Positions 1,525 to 38,530 of a stretch of DNA of 40,130 nt are shown piece by piece; the first letter of the stretch is position 1; each line of letters begins with the position of its first letter. Source of the DNA: a virus (lineage: Duplodnaviria; Caudoviricetes); IMG/VR virus record IMGVR_UViG_3300032334_000790, positions 1 through 40,130 of that record; one strand, 5' to 3'. The notes under the pieces are model-generated. The model did no database searches, was not told the DNA's origin, and was given only the letters and a program-made list of their open reading frames with translations. Both the position numbers and the translations under genes were made by a program.

Positions 1525-2052
1525 TTATGCTGCTAGAGCTGCTTTGAGAAATTCTCTTGCCGCTTCGGTTAAATTATCGTTAGCCGCTATTTTTTCGGCT
1601 ATGTCAGATTTGACGCCGAAGCGAGCAAAGAAAGCCGCCCATTGCGTTTTGTCTAGTTTTGCCAGAATAGCCGCCGCCGCGTCAATTTTGCGCTGTGTGA
1701 CGCGCTGAGCTGATTTGCGGGCCGGTTTGATTGCTGGCTCTTGAACCGTTGGCGCTTCTGCTTGATTGTTGAACCGATAAAGCGGCTTGCCGTTTTTGTC
1801 TTGGCCAACAATTTCCGCCTGAGCAAGAATAGATGCCGCAAGCGGTTTGTTATAAATAGACAACCCTTTGCGACGTGCCTTTTGTTCTGCGCTCAAATAA
1901 TCGCCGTAAACTTTACCAGTTTTAACGTTTACATATTTACCAGAAATTTCGAATACGTTTCCGTTATTGTTATTTATTAAGCCGGGTTTATTCCATAGCT
2001 CTTCGCACTGTTTTTTGATTTGCGCTGCGGTTAAGTGCTCAGAATGTTTCAT
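1525..2052 (-). CDS. Hypothetical protein
   Basis: AAGGA RBS; 175 aa. Confidence 0.7.
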   Translation of the reverse strand: MKHSEHLTAAQIKKQCEELWNKPGLINNNNGNVFEISGKYVNVKTGKVYGDYLSAEQKARRKGLSIYNKPLAASILAQAEIVGQDKNGKPLYRFNNQAEAPTVQEPAIKPARKSAQRVTQRKIDAAAAILAKLDKTQWAAFFARFGVKSDIAEKIAANDNLTEAAREFLKAALAA

Positions 2053-3190: not shown

Positions 3191-3315
3191 CGCTATTAGG
3201 GACAAGGCGACATAGACCCCCCCCCTATGGTGTGACCACCCCTGGGGGCGGCTGCTGTAGCATGCCTCCTCCCTCTACAAAAAAATATAAAAAATCTTTC
3301 CGAACCGCAGGTGAG

Positions 3316-3501
3316 ATGATCCGTTTTAAAGACGATCCCCTAGCTGAATTGAAACAGCGTGTCGCTAATCTTGAGACTGAATTGAGACTACTGAAGTCTC
3401 ACCTTGAGACAAAACCAGTCTCACAAGTCTCACGCCCTTGGGTAACTGCTGGCGTGTCTAAGGCGACGTGGTATCGCCGCAAGCAATCTAAGGTTTCGTA
3501 A
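3316..3501 (+). CDS. Small coiled-coil protein with C-terminal HTH-like motif
   Basis: RPWVTAGVSKATWYRR resembles the PW...G.S..TWYRR helix-turn-helix motif; ATG at 3316 preferred over GTG at 3187. Confidence 0.6.
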   Translation: MIRFKDDPLAELKQRVANLETELRLLKSHLETKPVSQVSRPWVTAGVSKATWYRRKQSKVS

Positions 3502-3740
3502 TGAGACTGTATTTCAATCGTTGCCGTGTGTGTGGACAGGCGCATGATGTTGGCGCTCCGCATAAGTTTGGCAAGGCTGCTGATGTTAGGCGAGGTCAGC
3601 CCTCACAATTGACTCCAGAAGCCATAGAAACTCTCAGCAGCGCCTTTGGTGGTGTATCCCCCGCTGATACACCACCCACCCCTATAGGGGCCTCTCAGCG
3701 TCGTCCTGGGCGTCCAAAAAAAATAGAAAGCAATGCCTGA
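3501..3740 (+). CDS. Hypothetical protein (CxxC-H putative Zn motif, C-terminal GRP AT-hook-like motif)
   Basis: CRVCGQAH...H and RRPGRPKK; coupled start. Confidence 0.6.
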   Translation: MRLYFNRCRVCGQAHDVGAPHKFGKAADVRRGQPSQLTPEAIETLSSAFGGVSPADTPPTPIGASQRRPGRPKKIESNA

Positions 3741-4845
3741 TCAACGAGAAACCACACTAAGCGCTTATACGCCTACGTGGCGAGATAGGCTTGCTGGTTT
3801 ATTGATGGGCGATGCCCCCGCTTCTCCAGAGCGGAGAAACTTTGTCGGCGGTTTACTTGGTTCTACTGGATTAGGTTCAAACGGCGCTGGTGTTGTTGAT
3901 GCAACTCCGTTAGGCGGCTTGCTAAGTATGCAAGAGGCGAAGAATCCTAGAGAGGCTTCGTTGGCTATGCTTGGTTTATTGCCGGGCGCAAATGTAGCGA
4001 ATAAGGCGGTTAGCGCTGCTGAACATGCTGCTCCTGCTGCTGAGCGATATATAACCGCGTATCATGGTTCGCCGCATAGCTTTGATCGGTTTGACACGTC
4101 AAAAATAGGCACGGGCGAAGGCGCTCAAGTTTATGGGCGGGGGTTGTATTTTTCTGACAATGAGGATGTAGCAAAAGGTTATCGAGACGGTCTTTCGTCA
4201 AGCAATGTTCTTTCAGCTGATGGTCGCCGTGTAGACGATATGCCTGGTCATGAGCGCGAGGTAATGAACTATCTCGTTAGAACTGGCAAAACTCCGGAAG
4301 ATGCAGTTAAGCATTTTACCGCCCAAGCTGAAAAAGATAATGAAATGATGAGAGCATTAGAAATGCCCGTTTCATCATCTGCAAAAGATCCGAGAATTGA
4401 ATTTGCAAAAGGTTTATCTGCTACGCCGGATTTTGAAAGCGTTCCAAGCGGTAGAATGTATCAAGTTCGGATCAATGCTGACCCTGAACATTTTCTTGAT
4501 TGGGATAAGCCACTTAATCAACAATCTGAAGTTGTTAAAAATAAAGTTTTAAATAGTCGCAATTTTATTAACAGAACAGATCCAGAAGAAAGATTTAATT
4601 TAACTGGAAAAGATATTTACGGGATGGGGCATGATCAACTCAAAAATTCTGGTATTCCTGGAATTAAATACTTAGATCAGGGATCACGTGGCGGCGGCAA
4701 GGGAACAAGCAACTACGTTGTTTTTAATGATGACATTGTTGATATTATGAAGAAATACGGTCTAGTCGGCTTATTAGGCGGTGGCGCTGCTTACAATGGT
4801 ATGGGGCAACAGCAACAGCAACAGCATCAGCCAGATGAAATGTAA
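3733..4845 (+). CDS. ADP-ribosyltransferase-fold protein of the polyvalent-protein type, with a Gly/Leu-rich N-terminus
   Basis: AYHGSPHSFDRFD..KIGTGEGAQVYGRGLYFS...GIPGIKYLD...NYVVF. Confidence 0.65.
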   Translation: MPDQRETTLSAYTPTWRDRLAGLLMGDAPASPERRNFVGGLLGSTGLGSNGAGVVDATPLGGLLSMQEAKNPREASLAMLGLLPGANVANKAVSAAEHAAPAAERYITAYHGSPHSFDRFDTSKIGTGEGAQVYGRGLYFSDNEDVAKGYRDGLSSSNVLSADGRRVDDMPGHEREVMNYLVRTGKTPEDAVKHFTAQAEKDNEMMRALEMPVSSSAKDPRIEFAKGLSATPDFESVPSGRMYQVRINADPEHFLDWDKPLNQQSEVVKNKVLNSRNFINRTDPEERFNLTGKDIYGMGHDQLKNSGIPGIKYLDQGSRGGGKGTSNYVVFNDDIVDIMKKYGLVGLLGGGAAYNGMGQQQQQQHQPDEM

Positions 4846-6239: not shown

Positions 6240-6424
6240 CAGCGGAAAGTTGTGGAATTAAGGATTATTTACAATCCTTAATTGAACAAATACGGCACGA
6301 AGAAAGAGAACGTGCGGCGCAAATCGTTGAAGATTGGCCGGTTACGACAAATTACATTGTTCAAAAGATTTATGTGGAACAACGTCGCAAAGACATAGCA
6401 AAAGCCATACGAGAGCAGAAATGA
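6236..6424 (+). CDS. Hypothetical protein (ERERAA helix type)
   Basis: GTG overlapping the terL stop; EERERAAQIVE...IAKAIR. Confidence 0.55.
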   Translation: MTAESCGIKDYLQSLIEQIRHEERERAAQIVEDWPVTTNYIVQKIYVEQRRKDIAKAIREQK

Positions 6425-7119
6425 TCAACGTTGCCTGTGTGCTCAGCAATGTAGGCGAGCTCTATGGCGTTGATTATGTTTATAAGCTGAAAAGATCCTT
6501 TGAGCGGCATTTAAATACTGATTATCGGTTTTACTGTTTTACCAATGTTCAGATCCCCGATGTGGCTACAATTGAGCTACGTCATGATTGGCATGGCCTT
6601 TGGTCTAAGATTGAAATGTTTCGGCCCCACGCTTTGAGCGGGCCGACTCTTTATTGTGATTTAGACGTAATTCTAACTGGCGACGTTACAGAACTGGCGA
6701 AATATAAAAGTAGAGCCGGTTTCTTTATGATTGATGACGTGCCTGAATATCCCCAGGTCGATAATTCTACATTGATGTGGTGGGATAGCGATAATCCTGC
6801 TTGGTATGGGATTTACGAAGAGTTTGCCCGTCGGCCACGTCATTTTATGGAAAAGCATAGTTGGGATGGCGCTAAGCCTGAAAACTTTGCGGATCAATCT
6901 TATATCGCTGAATATTTACGGTTCTTTGGAAAGAAGCCCGTTCATTGGCAGAAATGCTTTCCGAAAGAATGGTTCAAGATTTTTTCTGCGCATGGCCGCA
7001 TGACTGAGGATGCTCAGAAATGGGAACCTAATGATGGTTCTCGCTTTTGGTATGCCTTGGGTCAGCCTAAAGCGCATCAGAAAACACACCTGCCTCTTGT
7101 AGAGAAGAATTGGATTTAG
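6421..7119 (+). CDS. GT-A fold glycosyltransferase
   Basis: INVACV...YVYKL...FYCFT, WSKIEMF, DxD (YCDLDV), NSTLMWW, DQ; start ATG 6421. Confidence 0.75.
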   Translation: MINVACVLSNVGELYGVDYVYKLKRSFERHLNTDYRFYCFTNVQIPDVATIELRHDWHGLWSKIEMFRPHALSGPTLYCDLDVILTGDVTELAKYKSRAGFFMIDDVPEYPQVDNSTLMWWDSDNPAWYGIYEEFARRPRHFMEKHSWDGAKPENFADQSYIAEYLRFFGKKPVHWQKCFPKEWFKIFSAHGRMTEDAQKWEPNDGSRFWYALGQPKAHQKTHLPLVEKNWI

Positions 7120-11954: not shown

Positions 11955-12257
11955 ATGCGCAAAGTAATGGATCACGATCCCACTACAGGGATCAGCCATG
12001 TATTCTACTACGACGAGATGACGGATGAAGCTACAATTGTAGCAGAGCAAGATGTCTCTAGTGTCGTAGAGCTTAATAAAAAATCATATAATGAGACGCA
12101 TGGTAAGTTTGGCGAGTTTAGTAAAGTCGCCTCGCTACCGTTGGTTGTTTATAATGATCTTCAAAAGAAGGGCATTTTAAATGATCCTAAAGCTCTCAAG
12201 CGCTGGTTAAATGATCCAGACAACCGTTTCTTTAGAACAAGGCCTGGCACCATATGA
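11955..12257 (+). CDS. Conserved head-associated hypothetical protein
   Basis: QDVS..., KVASLP, WLNDPDNRFFRT motif typical right after this capsid type. Confidence 0.75.
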   Translation: MRKVMDHDPTTGISHVFYYDEMTDEATIVAEQDVSSVVELNKKSYNETHGKFGEFSKVASLPLVVYNDLQKKGILNDPKALKRWLNDPDNRFFRTRPGTI

Positions 12258-12919
12258 CAGCGCCATCTGTAGCAATTTGTCTGCCCTGTAGAGATCAGGT
12301 CAATACAGGCTTTGCGTATGACTTAGCTGTATTAACGGCTAATTGGAGTGCAACACATATTCCTGAAGGCGGTAAACTTTACGTGTTTACGTCTATGGGA
12401 ACGCTCATTGCTAACCAGAGACAAGAATTAGTCTTAGAAGCAATGCAGGCGGGTTGTAGTCACATTCTGTTTTTAGATACTGACATGCGCTTCCCGAAAG
12501 ACACGCTTGATCGTCTTATGGCGCATAATCAGCCAATTGTTGCGGCGAATTACGCAACACGGCGTATGCCCGTAAAGACTGTGGCATTTAGCTCAGATCA
12601 GGGATGGGACTGTGTTTATACAACGCCTGAAAGCGAAGGTTTAGAAGAGGTTCATTCCGTTGGAATGGGCGTCATGCTTATTCAGCGTGAAGTTTTTGAG
12701 AAGATGGAATTGCCGTGGTTCCATTTGGGCTACAGCATGAAAACCCATTCATTCAGTGGCGAAGATATTTTCTTTTGTCGCTCAGCCCGAAAACACGGCT
12801 TTAAGGTTCTTATTGATCACGGTCTTTCTAAGCAAGTTAAGCATATTGGTTCATTTGAATATGCTCACGAACACGCTGAGGTTTGCAAGCAGGAATCCGA
12901 TGATCTCAGCAAATCGTAG
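12254..12919 (+). CDS. GT2-like (GT-A) glycosyltransferase
   Basis: HILFLDTDM (DxD), GMGVMLI, GEDIFFC, H-x-G. Confidence 0.8.
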   Translation: MTAPSVAICLPCRDQVNTGFAYDLAVLTANWSATHIPEGGKLYVFTSMGTLIANQRQELVLEAMQAGCSHILFLDTDMRFPKDTLDRLMAHNQPIVAANYATRRMPVKTVAFSSDQGWDCVYTTPESEGLEEVHSVGMGVMLIQREVFEKMELPWFHLGYSMKTHSFSGEDIFFCRSARKHGFKVLIDHGLSKQVKHIGSFEYAHEHAEVCKQESDDLSKS

Positions 12920-29411: not shown

Positions 29412-29653
29412 TCCGTAGCGAAGAAGGATTTTTTAAACATGCTGTTGAAGCAATAGATATTGTTTTTACAACCGCTGGCGAGAAAACATCTGCTGCGGTT
29501 TCTGTCGCTATGATTAGCACACCAGTATGGAAAATGTGGTTACAGAATATATCTGAAACAGCCGCGTTAATTGCCCCGCTGTTGGGCTGCCTGTTTCTTG
29601 GCCTTCAAATTTTACTCAAGGTTATGGAAATAAGCTCCAATAGGGGGAAATGA
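29408..29653 (+). CDS. Small membrane protein (possible second holin/antiholin)
   Basis: Hydrophobic C-terminal segment; ATG 29408 overlaps upstream stop. Confidence 0.55.
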   Translation: MIRSEEGFFKHAVEAIDIVFTTAGEKTSAAVSVAMISTPVWKMWLQNISETAALIAPLLGCLFLGLQILLKVMEISSNRGK

Positions 29654-30768
29654 TGTTGCAAGCTCCAGGCAAAAGCCAACTGGATCAGAGCGTATTGGAA
29701 AAAAGCAAACAGGCATTTGAAGCAACCGGCAACATTACTAAAGCAGCAGAATTATTAGGCATATCACGTAGGGCTTTGCAGCATAGGTTGAAATATATTA
29801 ATAATCCGGCGCAAGGAAAGTTTTCAGCGCCTAAACTTCCATCTTCACTTCCAACAATAGAAGAACTTTTAGAGCGTCGCACGGCTCAAGGCGATAGATC
29901 ATTAGCAGCAGATGAAGCCAGACATCTTATTCCAATTGATGTGCACATTGATGGGCCTTTTGGCTTGTGGGTATGGGGCGACCCGCACATAGACGACGAT
30001 GGTTGCAACCTTCGTTTATTGCGTGAACACGTTGAATTAGCAAAACACCCTCAAATCCTCTCAAGTCACATCGGGGATATAGGGAATTTTTGGATAGGGC
30101 GCCTTTCACGTTTATACGCTCATCAATCAACATCAGTTCACGAAGCTATTATGCTTGCCGAATGGTTGTTGACGCAGCATGACAATGTATTTTGCGTTCT
30201 TGGCAATCATGATTGCTGGCAGGGCGGTGGGATGGAAAATCCTATCAACTGGATCTTAAAACACGCGCAAGGTGTGACTGAAGAACATGGGGTAAGGATA
30301 GCCTTAAACTCACCTAATGGGGTAGTAACCCGCGTAAACGCTCGTCACGACTTCCCAGGCCGAAGTCAATACAACATCAATCACGGCATGCGGCGTGAAC
30401 TGGCCTTTGGCCATAAAGATCACATTCTTGTTTCAGGCCATTTACACTCAGGCGGCGACCAAGGTTTAGCTCACGATGGCGACGGAATGGTGAGCCAGTT
30501 AGTGCGCGTTAGCGGCTATAAGCAGGTCGATCATTACGCCAAGCAACTGAATTTCCCGCCTCAGAAAATTCATCCATCAGCGCTGATTATTATCAATCCC
30601 GATGAGCCAGAAACCAGCCGCGCAAGGGCATGGTGCGCTCCTACTGTAGAGATTGGCGTGAAACTATTAGACGCCATTAGAGCCGATTATTTAGCGAGTA
30701 AGTCAAAGGTGACTAATGCAAATGAGAGATCAGCTAAAACAAGTAACAAAAAATCACTTATTCGTTAG
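29650..30768 (+). CDS. HTH-fused calcineurin-like metallophosphoesterase
   Basis: GNITKAAELLGISR HTH; GDPH, GD, GNHD, GHLH motifs. Confidence 0.85.
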   Translation: MMLQAPGKSQLDQSVLEKSKQAFEATGNITKAAELLGISRRALQHRLKYINNPAQGKFSAPKLPSSLPTIEELLERRTAQGDRSLAADEARHLIPIDVHIDGPFGLWVWGDPHIDDDGCNLRLLREHVELAKHPQILSSHIGDIGNFWIGRLSRLYAHQSTSVHEAIMLAEWLLTQHDNVFCVLGNHDCWQGGGMENPINWILKHAQGVTEEHGVRIALNSPNGVVTRVNARHDFPGRSQYNINHGMRRELAFGHKDHILVSGHLHSGGDQGLAHDGDGMVSQLVRVSGYKQVDHYAKQLNFPPQKIHPSALIIINPDEPETSRARAWCAPTVEIGVKLLDAIRADYLASKSKVTNANERSAKTSNKKSLIR

Positions 30769-33057: not shown

Positions 33058-33349
33058 TATTAACGGCTCTCCAAACAATCGCACTTCTGCCAGATTTATT
33101 TGGGCGCCGTTCTCCTGTGTCAGAAATAACTCCGCGAATAGCCATCGGCCTAAACCTCGGAGATATAGAAACAATATTAATACCCAAATATTCAGCAACT
33201 TGCTCTGTCGTCATGGCGCCATTATCTTGCAAGGCAGATAAAACCATGTGTTGAAGGTTAGTTACATGCGGCTGAATATCATCAGCAGCCATGTGACTTG
33301 TGTTAGGATCAGAATTTCGTGCGTAAGCGCGGTTTGAAGAAATATTCAT
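33038..33349 (-). CDS. Winged-helix DNA-binding protein
   Basis: ARNSDPNTSH, GAMTTEQVA, SPRF, SGRSAIVW. Confidence 0.7.
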   Translation of the reverse strand: MNISSNRAYARNSDPNTSHMAADDIQPHVTNLQHMVLSALQDNGAMTTEQVAEYLGINIVSISPRFRPMAIRGVISDTGERRPNKSGRSAIVWRAVNNGAQGV

Positions 33350-33738
33350 TACGCGACCTCTTGTTGTTCAGTTTCAAATTTGACGTCTTTCTCAGCGCCA
33401 AAAGCTGCAATTAACTCCAATAGGTTTGTCATTTCTTGTTTGCTCATAGAGCTTGTGCGAAGCCCTAAAACTACAAAGCCGCCTTCAAGACCTGGGACTA
33501 CTTTGGCCTTACGCAGAGAAGCGGTAAAAACATCTTTCCAATCCTCTGCGCTTAGCTTTTCGCCATACCAATCAACTTGACGCGCTATGTCTCCAAGCCT
33601 CGCCCACAACAAACGATTTTGGTCGGCTGTTCTGCATGGCTTTTTGAAGCAGATAAAAGTTCCAGGCGGTGCTTTAGCCACCCAACCTTTTATTTTATGC
33701 TTATCTTCGTCGTTGTTTATTGATAACCAGTTAGGCAT
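33349..33738 (-). CDS. ninB: NinB/Orf recombination mediator
   Basis: RTADQNRLLWARLGDIARQV.W...L..EDWKD...TSSM. Confidence 0.9.
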   Translation of the reverse strand: MPNWLSINNDEDKHKIKGWVAKAPPGTFICFKKPCRTADQNRLLWARLGDIARQVDWYGEKLSAEDWKDVFTASLRKAKVVPGLEGGFVVLGLRTSSMSKQEMTNLLELIAAFGAEKDVKFETEQQEVA

Positions 33739-34005: not shown

Positions 34006-34494
34006 TTATTTCTCCTTACGAATTGTTATTGCGCCTGTTTTTGACTTGGATGCTTTAATGCCGTGGCCAAAAGCCTCTTGGACATCTGGCTCAACAAGTT
34101 CTTTGATGCGTTTAGCAGCAGCCTCAAACGCTTTTGATGGTGCATAATTTTGATGCCAATCACTGGCAGCATCCGCCCAACTATTGTTGCCGGTCATATC
34201 GACCTTACGCACAGCTTCTATGGGTGCCGGAATATGAACAACAATTGGTTCATCACCAGACTTCACGCATTCCCAAAAATGACGCTCAGCGGCTATTAAT
34301 TGATCCTGATAAATTAGGTCAGCATCGACCTCAAATACCTTCCACTTTTGAGTACCGAAAAATACGCTCAAAAATGCTTTCTGATGGCCACAAACACGCA
34401 TGTTGTGTTGTAACTGGGGAAAATAGCGCTCAAGTATAGCTTCCTCAGTCTGGAAGGCGCTAACGTGCTTTGCTTCAAATATTGCTCTAGACAT
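34006..34494 (-). CDS. C-terminal half of YqaJ/lambda-exonuclease-type nuclease
   Basis: FEAKH (ExK motif), YFPQLQHNM.V, LSVFFG, FW..V; own AGGAG RBS. Confidence 0.8.
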   Translation of the reverse strand: MSRAIFEAKHVSAFQTEEAILERYFPQLQHNMRVCGHQKAFLSVFFGTQKWKVFEVDADLIYQDQLIAAERHFWECVKSGDEPIVVHIPAPIEAVRKVDMTGNNSWADAASDWHQNYAPSKAFEAAAKRIKELVEPDVQEAFGHGIKASKSKTGAITIRKEK

Positions 34495-34747
34495 TGATTT
34501 TCTCCTGCAAATTTAATTCAGCAGGCCATTCCATCCAATGCGTCATTTTTTGAATGCCGTTTTCAAGCATTATATTGACAGGCTCACCTACAATGTCTGT
34601 AAATGCCTCAGTCTCAATGTCCCAAATAACTGGGCCAAATACTTTCTCCCATATTGAACCATCATCATCAGACAAGTATCTGCGCTCAACGCGCACTAAT
34701 AATTGCCCTTTTTTTGGTGCTGTTTCAGCTGGCTCCCAATTAAGCAT
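34487..34747 (-). CDS. DUF551-like small protein inserted within the exonuclease gene
   Basis: WEPAETAPK.G...LLV N-terminus and THWM.WP C-terminus. Confidence 0.7.
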   Translation of the reverse strand: MLNWEPAETAPKKGQLLVRVERRYLSDDDGSIWEKVFGPVIWDIETEAFTDIVGEPVNIMLENGIQKMTHWMEWPAELNLQEKINV

Positions 34748-35042
34748 CTGTCTCTCCGTCTAATGTGCAAAGCATGAATGGAAATTCAGCGCTTATCTGC
34801 TGATCGCCTTGACGCGTTACAGTCTTTCCTGTTTCTTCCTCGAACCAGATGACGTTAAAAGCCTCGGTAAAAGAACCCATGCGAACTGGCAAAACGCGTG
34901 ACAGATCCTCCGGCTCAATTTCACCGCGCTTTTCTTTCCAAAGACGCAAAATCTTTTCTGCGTCACCAGACATAATGATGTTTGCGTCTGATCCACCAAG
35001 ACCTTGCTTGCGGAAATCTTTTTGCTGTTTTGTAAGGCTCAT
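34740..35042 (-). CDS. N-terminal half of YqaJ/lambda-exonuclease-type nuclease
   Basis: R..GLGGSDA, LW.EK.G, G..TE, CTLDG then stop. Confidence 0.85.
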   Translation of the reverse strand: MSLTKQQKDFRKQGLGGSDANIIMSGDAEKILRLWKEKRGEIEPEDLSRVLPVRMGSFTEAFNVIWFEEETGKTVTRQGDQQISAEFPFMLCTLDGETDA

Positions 35043-35452
35043 GCTGCCTCCACAACAGGTTTAAGATCAGTTTTGTCGGCAAATTCATCTTCAGAATAAA
35101 CGCCATAAAGACCAGCAAGTTTAATAATTACTCTGTCTTTGGCGCGCTTCTCAGCCATAGCCCAAACATACGGAGCCATGCGGCCAGATACGCGGTAATT
35201 GGCGTTTACAAGGGCCTCGCCTATTGACCATTCACGCCATTCGCCACGCCAGCCCGTAACTAAGATAACCGCCTCATCACGCTCTGATCGAATAATTGTA
35301 GGAGGTTCAAAAGCAATTTCTAAAGCGGCAGCAAGACGTTCCAAGGCTTTATGTTTTACAACGTAACTCGTTTGTATCTGCCAAACGTCATCACGATTAA
35401 GGGCAACATCATGATTAGCAAATAGTTCTTTTATATCGTTGAGCGCGCTCAT
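35039..35452 (-). CDS. Putative single-strand annealing protein (RecT/Rad52-like fold, short form)
   Basis: GEA...MAEKRAKDRVIIKLAGLYGVYSEDE; adjacent to exonuclease; ATG 35452. Confidence 0.55.
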   Translation of the reverse strand: MSALNDIKELFANHDVALNRDDVWQIQTSYVVKHKALERLAAALEIAFEPPTIIRSERDEAVILVTGWRGEWREWSIGEALVNANYRVSGRMAPYVWAMAEKRAKDRVIIKLAGLYGVYSEDEFADKTDLKPVVEAA

Positions 35453-37631: not shown

Positions 37632-37988
37632 ATGAAAGAGGCTCAAATACAAAGCGCTATTGTTAAGTATTTGCGCCTTGTTCTTCCCAAAAATTACCGT
37701 TGCTTTGCCGTTCCTAACGGCTCTCAGCGATTGCCGAATGGAAGACCAGCCAATGCCGTTGCTGGATTAACGCCAGGCGTTCCTGACCTAGCAATTGTTG
37801 GTGATGGAAGGATTTTTTTTATCGAAGTGAAATCCAAAAAAGGGCGTCTGAGTGAAGCTCAAAGCGAGTGGGGAGACTTCTGCATTTATCAAGCGATGGT
37901 GCCGTGGGCCTGCGTTCATTCTGTTGATGAAACAAGACACGCTCTTAATGAATGGGGAATAAAAACAAAGGAGTCAGTTCAATGTTGA
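37632..37988 (+). CDS. VRR-NUC nuclease (Holliday junction resolvase-like)
   Basis: EAQIQ, GVPDL, FIEVKSKKGRLSEAQ. Confidence 0.88.
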   Translation: MKEAQIQSAIVKYLRLVLPKNYRCFAVPNGSQRLPNGRPANAVAGLTPGVPDLAIVGDGRIFFIEVKSKKGRLSEAQSEWGDFCIYQAMVPWACVHSVDETRHALNEWGIKTKESVQC

Positions 37989-38530
37989 GTAATGCGCAGC
38001 AATTATATGAGATTTACAAATCTGCTCGCTCTAACATGCGCATGGAGCAAAAACTAAATTTTGTAAACACTGATCTTGTTCGGCCAGTTATCGAAGAAAC
38101 CGTTGAGCCAGTTATCGAAATCAAAGAAGAACCTTTGAGCAAATGGCAATTAAGAAAATTGAGACAAGCTCTCGATGACGCCCTTCAAGACGATTATGAA
38201 GCTGAAAAAGTTTTTAGGCCAAAATTAAAAACCATTGTGACTGCCGTAGCGCGTGAATTTAATTTCACCATTAACGATCTTCTTTCTCACAGAAAGCCTT
38301 CGGATATTGTAACGGCTCGATTTGCGGCGATTTATCTGGCTCGCAGACTTACGCTGCTTTCGACGACAGTAATAGGCAAGGGGCTAGGCAATCGGGATCA
38401 TTCCACGATTGTTCATGCTTTACGGCGCTTTCCTGAAATGATGAATGAGAACGATCAGTTGCTTGAGCGTGTTTTGCGTCTTGAAGAAAAACTAAAGATA
38501 GAAGCTGAGCAGGACAATGCCAAAAGATAG
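37982..38530 (+). CDS. DnaA domain IV (C-terminal HTH) protein
   Basis: IVTARFAAIYLARRLT.LS...IGK.LG.RDHSTIVHA. Confidence 0.85.
   Translation: MLSNAQQLYEIYKSARSNMRMEQKLNFVNTDLVRPVIEETVEPVIEIKEEPLSKWQLRKLRQALDDALQDDYEAEKVFRPKLKTIVTAVAREFNFTINDLLSHRKPSDIVTARFAAIYLARRLTLLSTTVIGKGLGNRDHSTIVHALRRFPEMMNENDQLLERVLRLEEKLKIEAEQDNAKR

Follow-up and report, generated by a model that had tools for sequence, protein, structure and literature searches.

Several phage enzymes encoded in two pieces have been described. The DNA polymerase of gene 43 in the Aeromonas phages 44RR and 25 is split into 43A and 43B, and the halves co-purify and are active; a spacer alone occupies this break in one phage, and in another the gap holds an extra gene that possibly invaded an already split gene (PMC2988022). 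According to the same account, the Aeh1 nrdA gene is split by mobE and the split NrdA is fully active, and the T4 topoisomerase is split by mobA (PMC2988022). The so-called fractured genes include those with split inteins and the halves of an SbcD-like nuclease, which lie around a Vsr-like ORF without an intein (PMC2677866). For lambda exonuclease, the catalytic and phosphate-binding residues are E85, D119, E129, K131, and R28, as given in PMC7496540 and PMC3118119.

This study analyzed a stretch of viral DNA of 40,130 nucleotides (hereafter, the window) that carries an exonuclease resembling lambda exonuclease (Red-alpha)/YqaJ (PF09588), LHK-Exo, SXT-Exo, and SPP1 G34.1P in fold, profile, and motif residues. 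The likeness to lambda exonuclease/YqaJ extends to the position in a module with a candidate annealase, SSB, and NinB. The family members are single chains in the descriptions that we drew on, whereas the window subunit is encoded on two genes and cut between the D and ExK strands; the YqaJ-type feature of all motifs on one polypeptide is thus absent, and the window protein also has an extra C-terminal domain.

Among the split enzymes, gene 43A/43B, as far as it is described in the account cited, is the closest parallel, with its possible later invader of a pre-existing split. It differs in being another enzyme, in having a seg homing endonuclease as the invader, and in its spacer, whereas the insert-less relatives of the window halves overlap by 8 nt; moreover, repeated switching with intact alleles was seen for the lineage of the window exonuclease. 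The Aeh1 nrdA and T4 topoisomerase breaks lie, like that of the window, in a functionally critical region, but there the insertion of a homing endonuclease makes the split, whereas here the split exists without the insert and the passenger has no nuclease match. An endonuclease gene of the mobE/nrdA type was absent from the break, at which 10 of the 12 split loci listed have nothing. The fractured genes likewise comprise a phage DNA-metabolism gene in two ORFs with a gene between them, although the intein or endonuclease described there is found in neither form in the window and SbcD has another nuclease fold. A literature search that covered titles and abstract openings, largely from outside the subscription journals, did not turn up a YqaJ or lambda exonuclease described as split. 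Reassembly of split phage enzymes is already documented, and what appears to be new, as far as the literature was searched, is a split in the YqaJ/lambda exonuclease family. We consider it probable, at roughly three chances in four, that the window encodes a predicted two-chain exonuclease subunit made by coupled translation, a reading based on sequence comparison and structure modeling.

The two halves and the recombination module

The 40,130-bp window represents a complete phage genome, with direct repeats at its termini, and carries integrase, repressor-like, portal, capsid, and tail-fibre genes. Its relatives and the labels of the sequencing runs suggest a temperate phage of a freshwater alphaproteobacterium. 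Several further genes were observed on the plus strand: two glycosyltransferase-like genes within the head module (6334-7119 and 12254-12919), a gene after the lysis genes (29650-30768), the 372-aa product of which combines a Fis-type HTH at the N terminus with a metallophosphoesterase-like domain, and a gene adjoining the replication initiator for a protein with a DnaA C-terminal HTH domain (37952-38530). A 175-aa ORF without a PHROG match lies opposite the late-gene strand (1528-2052, minus strand). The features of the exonuclease region are as follows.

34740..35042, minus strand: N-half of the exonuclease, 100 aa, ending TLDGETDA before the stop, with R11, the GGSD motif, E60, and D95
34487..34747, minus strand: passenger ORF (the insert), 86 aa, DUF551-like by features only
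34006..34494, minus strand: C-half, 162 aa, starting MSRAIFEAKH, with E7-x-K9, Y24-x-x-Q27-x-Q29, and an extra C-terminal domain of ~65 aa
34740..34747, minus strand: 8-nt start/stop overlap closing the N-half, with the ATG 5 nt before the N-half stop; lineage-wide break point
34754..34757, minus strand: Shine-Dalgarno-like GGAG within the Gly96-Glu97 codons, which follow that of the catalytic Asp; 6 nt upstream of the start codon of the insert
34502..34506, minus strand: AGGAG from the end of the insert, identical in the relative L039; predicted to be the ribosome-binding site of the C-half and located 7 nt upstream of its start codon
33740..34003, minus strand: single-strand DNA binding protein, phrog_18154, E 1e-8; next gene of the recombination module
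33349..33738, minus strand: NinB/Orf recombination mediator, Pfam NinB, E 6e-38
35039..35452, minus strand: candidate annealing protein, 137 aa, the stop of which overlaps the N-half start

The insert/C-half junction is also an 8-nt start/stop overlap. An earlier note on this DNA had described three ORFs coupled by overlaps, with D-G-E codons that double as the ribosome-binding site of the insert and an insert end that supplies AGGAG and ATG for the C-half; the coordinates, the overlaps, and both signals (GGAG at 34757-34754 and AGGAG at 34506-34502) were all confirmed on the minus strand.

The module runs leftward in the order candidate annealase, two exonuclease halves, SSB, and NinB, and no intact exonuclease copy was found elsewhere in the complete genome. 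On slender evidence, the gene at 35039..35452 is likely the partner annealing protein of the exonuclease. Its product is 61% identical to that of a Pam5 gene annotated as a recombination protein, and in phage BDU-MI-1 its homologue directly follows an intact exonuclease homologue; the family also neighbors exonuclease homologues in other phages. Language-model features placed the product in a Sak cluster at 0.87 only and in clusters of an unnamed family without a Pfam match at 0.97; its single-sequence fold was uninformative (pLDDT 41), and no relatives of the gene were found among viral contigs. An ERF annealase lies immediately 3' of the exonuclease in four of five split and two of two intact relatives tested. 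Because ERF follows the exonuclease in these close relatives and the window candidate belongs to a different family, the partner annealase appears to have been swapped. In the split relative L095, a 201-aa gene (3305-3907) without a Pfam match stands in place of ERF.

The N-half matched Pfam YqaJ PF09588 (E 6e-9; profile positions 4-98 of 150; 36.7 bits against a cut-off of 22), whereas the C-half had no Pfam YqaJ match. Both halves matched phrog_434, the N-half at 59-150 and the C-half at 157-309 (E 3e-18 for the latter); with three residues after the first match and two before the second, about one residue is missing at the break. TIGR03033 was matched below its cut-off, as it was by an intact relative. 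No intein sequence was found at the break; set against the intact profile, the last residue of the N-half and the first of the C-half adjoin to within about one residue.

The fold was placed through an intact relative, P0005, which is 91% and 93% identical to the two halves, and not through the window halves themselves. The AlphaFold model of P0005 (84-row alignment) had a pLDDT of 93, and a Foldseek search with it returned 3sm4 (lambda exonuclease) and 3syy (LHK-Exo) as the best matches (E 9e-9), as well as 3slp (E ~1e-8). Sequence searches of solved structures with P0005 and the alignments A1 and A2 as queries gave no relevant match, and the fold search alone placed the protein. The break maps to the turn of a beta-hairpin between strands 95-97 and 101-108 of the P0005 model, which bears out the earlier placement in a loop between two strands.

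To assess conservation, we relied on A2, which holds 25 N-type rows (the query and 24 of 63 matches, chosen by rank and a length of 99-109 aa), and A1, which holds 24 C-type rows (the query and 23 of the 120 matches listed, chosen by a length of 162-180 aa); the stand-alone halves in them reach down to 56-57% identity. R11, S18, E60, D95, and the GGSD motif were invariant in 25/25 rows of A2, and E7, K9, Y24, Q27, and Q29 in 24/24 rows of A1. The counts of LDG (34/34) and ExK (29/29) are partly circular, the rows having been chosen by the same motifs. From motif order and the fold match, and not from residue-level superposition, we infer that R11, E60, and D95 correspond to R28, E85, and D119 of lambda exonuclease, and E7 and K9 to E129 and K131.

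Selection was estimated from pairwise Nei-Gojobori dN/dS, with pairs kept at a dS of 0.1-1.5; the pairs are not independent. The medians for split loci were 0.16 for the N-half (15 of 55 pairs usable) and 0.11 for the C-half (11 of 55), compared with 0.16 (257 of 4560) and 0.21 (201 of 4560) for intact loci. Between the window and L039 the values were 0.058 and 0.106, although mosaicism weakens window-specific values. The split loci L005 and L045 have synonymous differences inside the junction itself, and their dN/dS is still 0.11 and 0.07. Neither half shows signs of decay, as the earlier note had stated: dN/dS resembles that of intact genes and the motif residues are invariant. Since the window flanks are closest to the intact loci L001 and L044, part of the measured constraint may date from the intact state.

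A model of the N+C complex scored 0.86, and the best of three controls scored 0.00; the mark for this score was reached by 116 of 157 solved pairs and 2 of 215 mismatched pairs. Contacts agreed in at least 98% between model runs, the partner pLDDT was at least 88, and the modelled interface included residues 1-10 of the C-half and 59-60 and 94-100 of the N-half. Because halves of split genes tend to pass through likeness to the intact fold, the model speaks for the fit of the halves and not for binding. The conserved residues, purifying selection, start signals, and complex model together favor the earlier proposal of a heterodimeric enzyme, predicted to have its active site composed from both chains, alongside a passenger gene that is not a nuclease.

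The same break with and without a passenger

The title of the earlier note had the exonuclease split by an unrelated gene. A search of relatives for the same split revealed that the break recurs, mostly with nothing in it. We classified 281 rows, namely the window and 280 loci from scans, many of them repeated, among the matches listed; these comprised 239 intact, 30 split, and 12 unclassifiable rows; once duplicates among those matches were merged, 132 different intact proteins and 12 different split loci remained. Ten of these 12 split loci are insert-less, and in each of them the C-half begins in the +1 frame at an ATG placed 5 nt upstream of the stop codon of the N-half. The other two, the window and L039, contain the insert, the ATG of which occupies that same site. 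An ATG is therefore found 5 nt ahead of the N-half stop in 12/12 distinct split loci among the matches listed, and the shared break extends to ~55-60% identity.

Stand-alone halves are also numerous in the protein collection, in which proteins have no DNA context; one N-half cluster has 43 members. Judged from proteins only, 40 of 42 short N-half proteins stop 2-6 residues past LDG, and 39 of these 40 finish in [D/N][A/E/G], which spells ATG in the next frame. A genome scan returned six alphaproteobacterial loci; since all six are intact across the junction, no host is tied to the split form. The best matches among annotated phages are single-piece, and the near-full-length ones are at most 36% identical. 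Among the best 150 of 4394 matches in a 50%-representative profile search, 14 short or odd proteins were inspected; P0228 and P0375 begin like split C-halves, the other 12 look like truncated intact genes, and a clear second split lineage was not found among the 14.

We then compared contigs from 8 of 13 listed runs. In X1, possibly the source run of the record, one contig spans the whole stretch. Diverged contigs from X3 (same study) and X5 (another study) span the N-half, insert, and C-half, and the layout is the same in L039. In X7 and X10, contigs skip exactly 253 nt, the presence/absence stretch at 34491-34743, and retain the insert-less split junction; pieces of the insert are present as well. 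X2 has an insert piece and a contig that skips 284 nt with 31 other letters, a net 253 nt, whereas in X9 and X11 a stretch of 300 nt is replaced by 46 other letters, a net 254 nt, a length that points to an in-frame intact form. All three allele types, namely intact, split, and split with the insert, coexist among public DNA contigs. The insert is thus a DNA polymorphism and not an intron; no RNA dataset was among the runs listed for this stretch. Because the identical break occurs without the insert in relatives and in the X7 and X10 contigs, which lack exactly the 253 nt and are still split, the passenger did not make the split, and the causal claim in the title of the earlier note is not supported. 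The split likely came first and the passenger later.

The 253-nt stretch is flanked by a repeat of the 7-nt overlap motif, imperfect in the window and perfect in L039; the latter agrees with entry through recombination at the gene junction. Of the earlier description of the insert as DUF551-like, the likeness stood by language-model features (0.92), but no significant match was found in Pfam, PHROGs, or NCBIfam. Homologues of the insert form five clusters at 73-97% identity, and versions of 84 aa exist (P0125-P0127). Two scans of viral contigs returned nothing real, one of them giving two short motif matches in an unrelated protein, and phage GenBank records held no match. The window and L039 inserts differ at three positions, all non-synonymous and two of them in overlap codons. 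P0128, a homologue with 73% identity and overlap-type ends (MHN..., ...NG), has the same contig count and the same longest contig as the C-half P0018 (59% identical), and the two possibly represent a second, older insert-bearing lineage.

These data bear on the reading that the insert-less split works and the window's insert allele is weak or dead, yielding too little C-half, and drifts because the exonuclease is dispensable. Recombination exonucleases can be dispensable for temperate phages, and the insert, near-identical over diverged backbones, is young here. Nonetheless, the insert restores both overlaps and supplies AGGAG for the C-half, it lies between intact halves on the different backbones of the window, L039, X3, and X5, and P0128 with its overlap-type ends hints at an older insert lineage. 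We consider a failing insert allele unlikely.

History of the split and transfer of the junction

The C-half tree comprised 140 rows, namely all 29 split rows and 111 intact rows thinned at 80%. Every split row fell in one group of 45 rows (SH-aLRT 83-84) with 16 intact genes inside it. On a 64-row tree, 14 changes of state were needed, at least six of them forced by well-supported branches (quick trees with a simple model), and monophyly of the split rows alone was rejected (AU p 3e-41). The N tree was less resolved, and its main well-supported set did not take in 5 of the 34 split halves; given this and the support of 83-84, a single origin of the split is not established.

At the break, the linkers of the nested intact genes are of about a dozen unrelated kinds, as judged by eye.

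L001, L003, L041, L043, L044, L122, L154, and L163; P0022, P0023, P0035, P0037, P0042, P0057, and P0060: nested intact exonucleases with varied linkers

Of the 22 intact proteins that fall inside the group with the split rows, a list picked from the tree and including near-duplicates, 11 have a Glu after LDG, as opposed to 1 of 173 outside that group. A 2-nt indel and a few substitutions set the L041 linker apart from the split junction, also by eye. Because the retained Glu is what the Shine-Dalgarno codons encode, most nested intact genes read as re-fusions, and these junction relics suggest re-fusion of split genes.

Comparison of the window, L039, L002, and L004 shows a junction patch of ~85 nt with 0-3 differences per 30 nt, whereas the flanks near it differ by up to 12 per 30 nt. 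Within window positions 34455-34790, the junction is near-identical to those of L002, L004, and L039 and both flanks are closest to the intact L001 and L044, a pattern of recent patch transfer. Since short junction patches recombine states between backbones, the direction and the count of the switches are uncertain.

Such patches could also be resistance alleles, with the split kept or spread by conflict at the site, in which a homing endonuclease or a host defence acts on the D/ExK DNA; this is compatible with a working two-chain enzyme. The contrast between patch and flanks and the dozen linkers fit conflict of this kind, and split phage genes are described as often associated with homing endonucleases (PMC2988022, PMC2677866). 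Against it, neither the break nor its immediate surroundings contain a nuclease gene, and the HNH-like gene further downstream, a Pfam HNH match in the window, occurs alike in intact (L001, L003, L154) and split (window, L045, L029) loci, as seen by eye. The alleles are also mosaic over their entire length, and constraint on the start region can explain some of the patch identity. Such conflict as the cause seems improbable to us.

Translation of the second half and the proposed enzyme

The GGAG at 34754..34757 precedes, and would serve, the insert in the window and the C-half in insert-less relatives. GGAG at the D-G-E codons was present in 8 of 11 split loci and absent in the other three, compared with 4 of 127 intact loci, and the median anti-SD duplex energy at that site was -6.6 kcal/mol in split and -3.0 kcal/mol in intact loci. 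The penultimate N-half codon was GAT in 11/11 split loci examined.

If a +1 frameshift, a ribosome hop, or RNA splicing joined the frames, a single chain would result, the latter two being alternatives raised in the earlier note. The C frame is always +1 in insert-less loci, with an SD-like site upstream, and 2 of 11 loci have an exactly matching codon on which a hop could land. The other nine lack it, however; the last sense codon of the N-half varies (GCC, GCT, GAA, GAG) so that no slippery codon is common, an ATG is present in all, and the C-half leaders span 6 to 15 codons. The insert RNA has no Rfam match and no unusual structure (fold z -0.74), the insert-less form exists as DNA, and a 253-nt insert would break a frameshift. 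Recoding is very improbable in our judgment, these data speak against the earlier splicing and hop alternatives, and re-initiation is likely favored. If the halves are already separate proteins, the passenger is easily explained, with a start of its own and a newly supplied ribosome-binding site ahead of the C-half. An assembly artefact or a decaying pseudogene, suggested by a metagenome-assembled record and by X1 as its possible source run, is almost certainly not the explanation, given the same layout in the independent assemblies of X3, X5, and L039, the low dN/dS, and the many stand-alone halves.

The exonuclease is encoded as two genes cut in the hairpin turn between the strand of the catalytic Asp and the Glu-x-Lys strand, and under the preferred two-chain reading the two chains would fold together into one active subunit. 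The ribosome would halt at the N-half stop and re-initiate at the overlapping ATG; in the window it would do so twice, through the passenger, which carries its own AGGAG for the C-half. The N chain would contribute the Arg of the 5'-phosphate pocket and two acidic metal ligands, and the C chain would contribute the Glu, the Lys, and the YxxQxQ helix. By analogy with lambda exonuclease, three N+C pairs may assemble as a ring, which would resect the ends of double-stranded DNA in the 5'-3' direction for an annealing protein. The split would be old, a later recombination event at the start/stop overlap would have brought in the passenger, which would travel between alleles on a short junction patch, and the intact genes nested among the split ones would mostly be re-fusions.

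It is conceivable, although rather doubtful, that phages toggle the nuclease between one and two chains, through conflict at the catalytic hairpin or because free halves are useful, either by mixing between co-infecting phages or by tuning the ring through unequal amounts; the break would then be a safe landing site, and cargo would ride in the region coding for the active site, with expression that keeps pace with recombination.

For annotation, the locus carries a warning: Pfam YqaJ does not match the C-half, and the pair resembles a pseudogene. The locus would also provide a ready-made split nuclease for mechanistic studies, such as mixing of subunits in the ring, or for conditional recombineering. 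With three coexisting allele types and about a dozen linkers among nested intact genes, the lineage amounts to a natural experiment on how genes split and fuse. Should the two halves prove active together, the catalytic core of lambda exonuclease would be buildable from two chains that meet at the active site.
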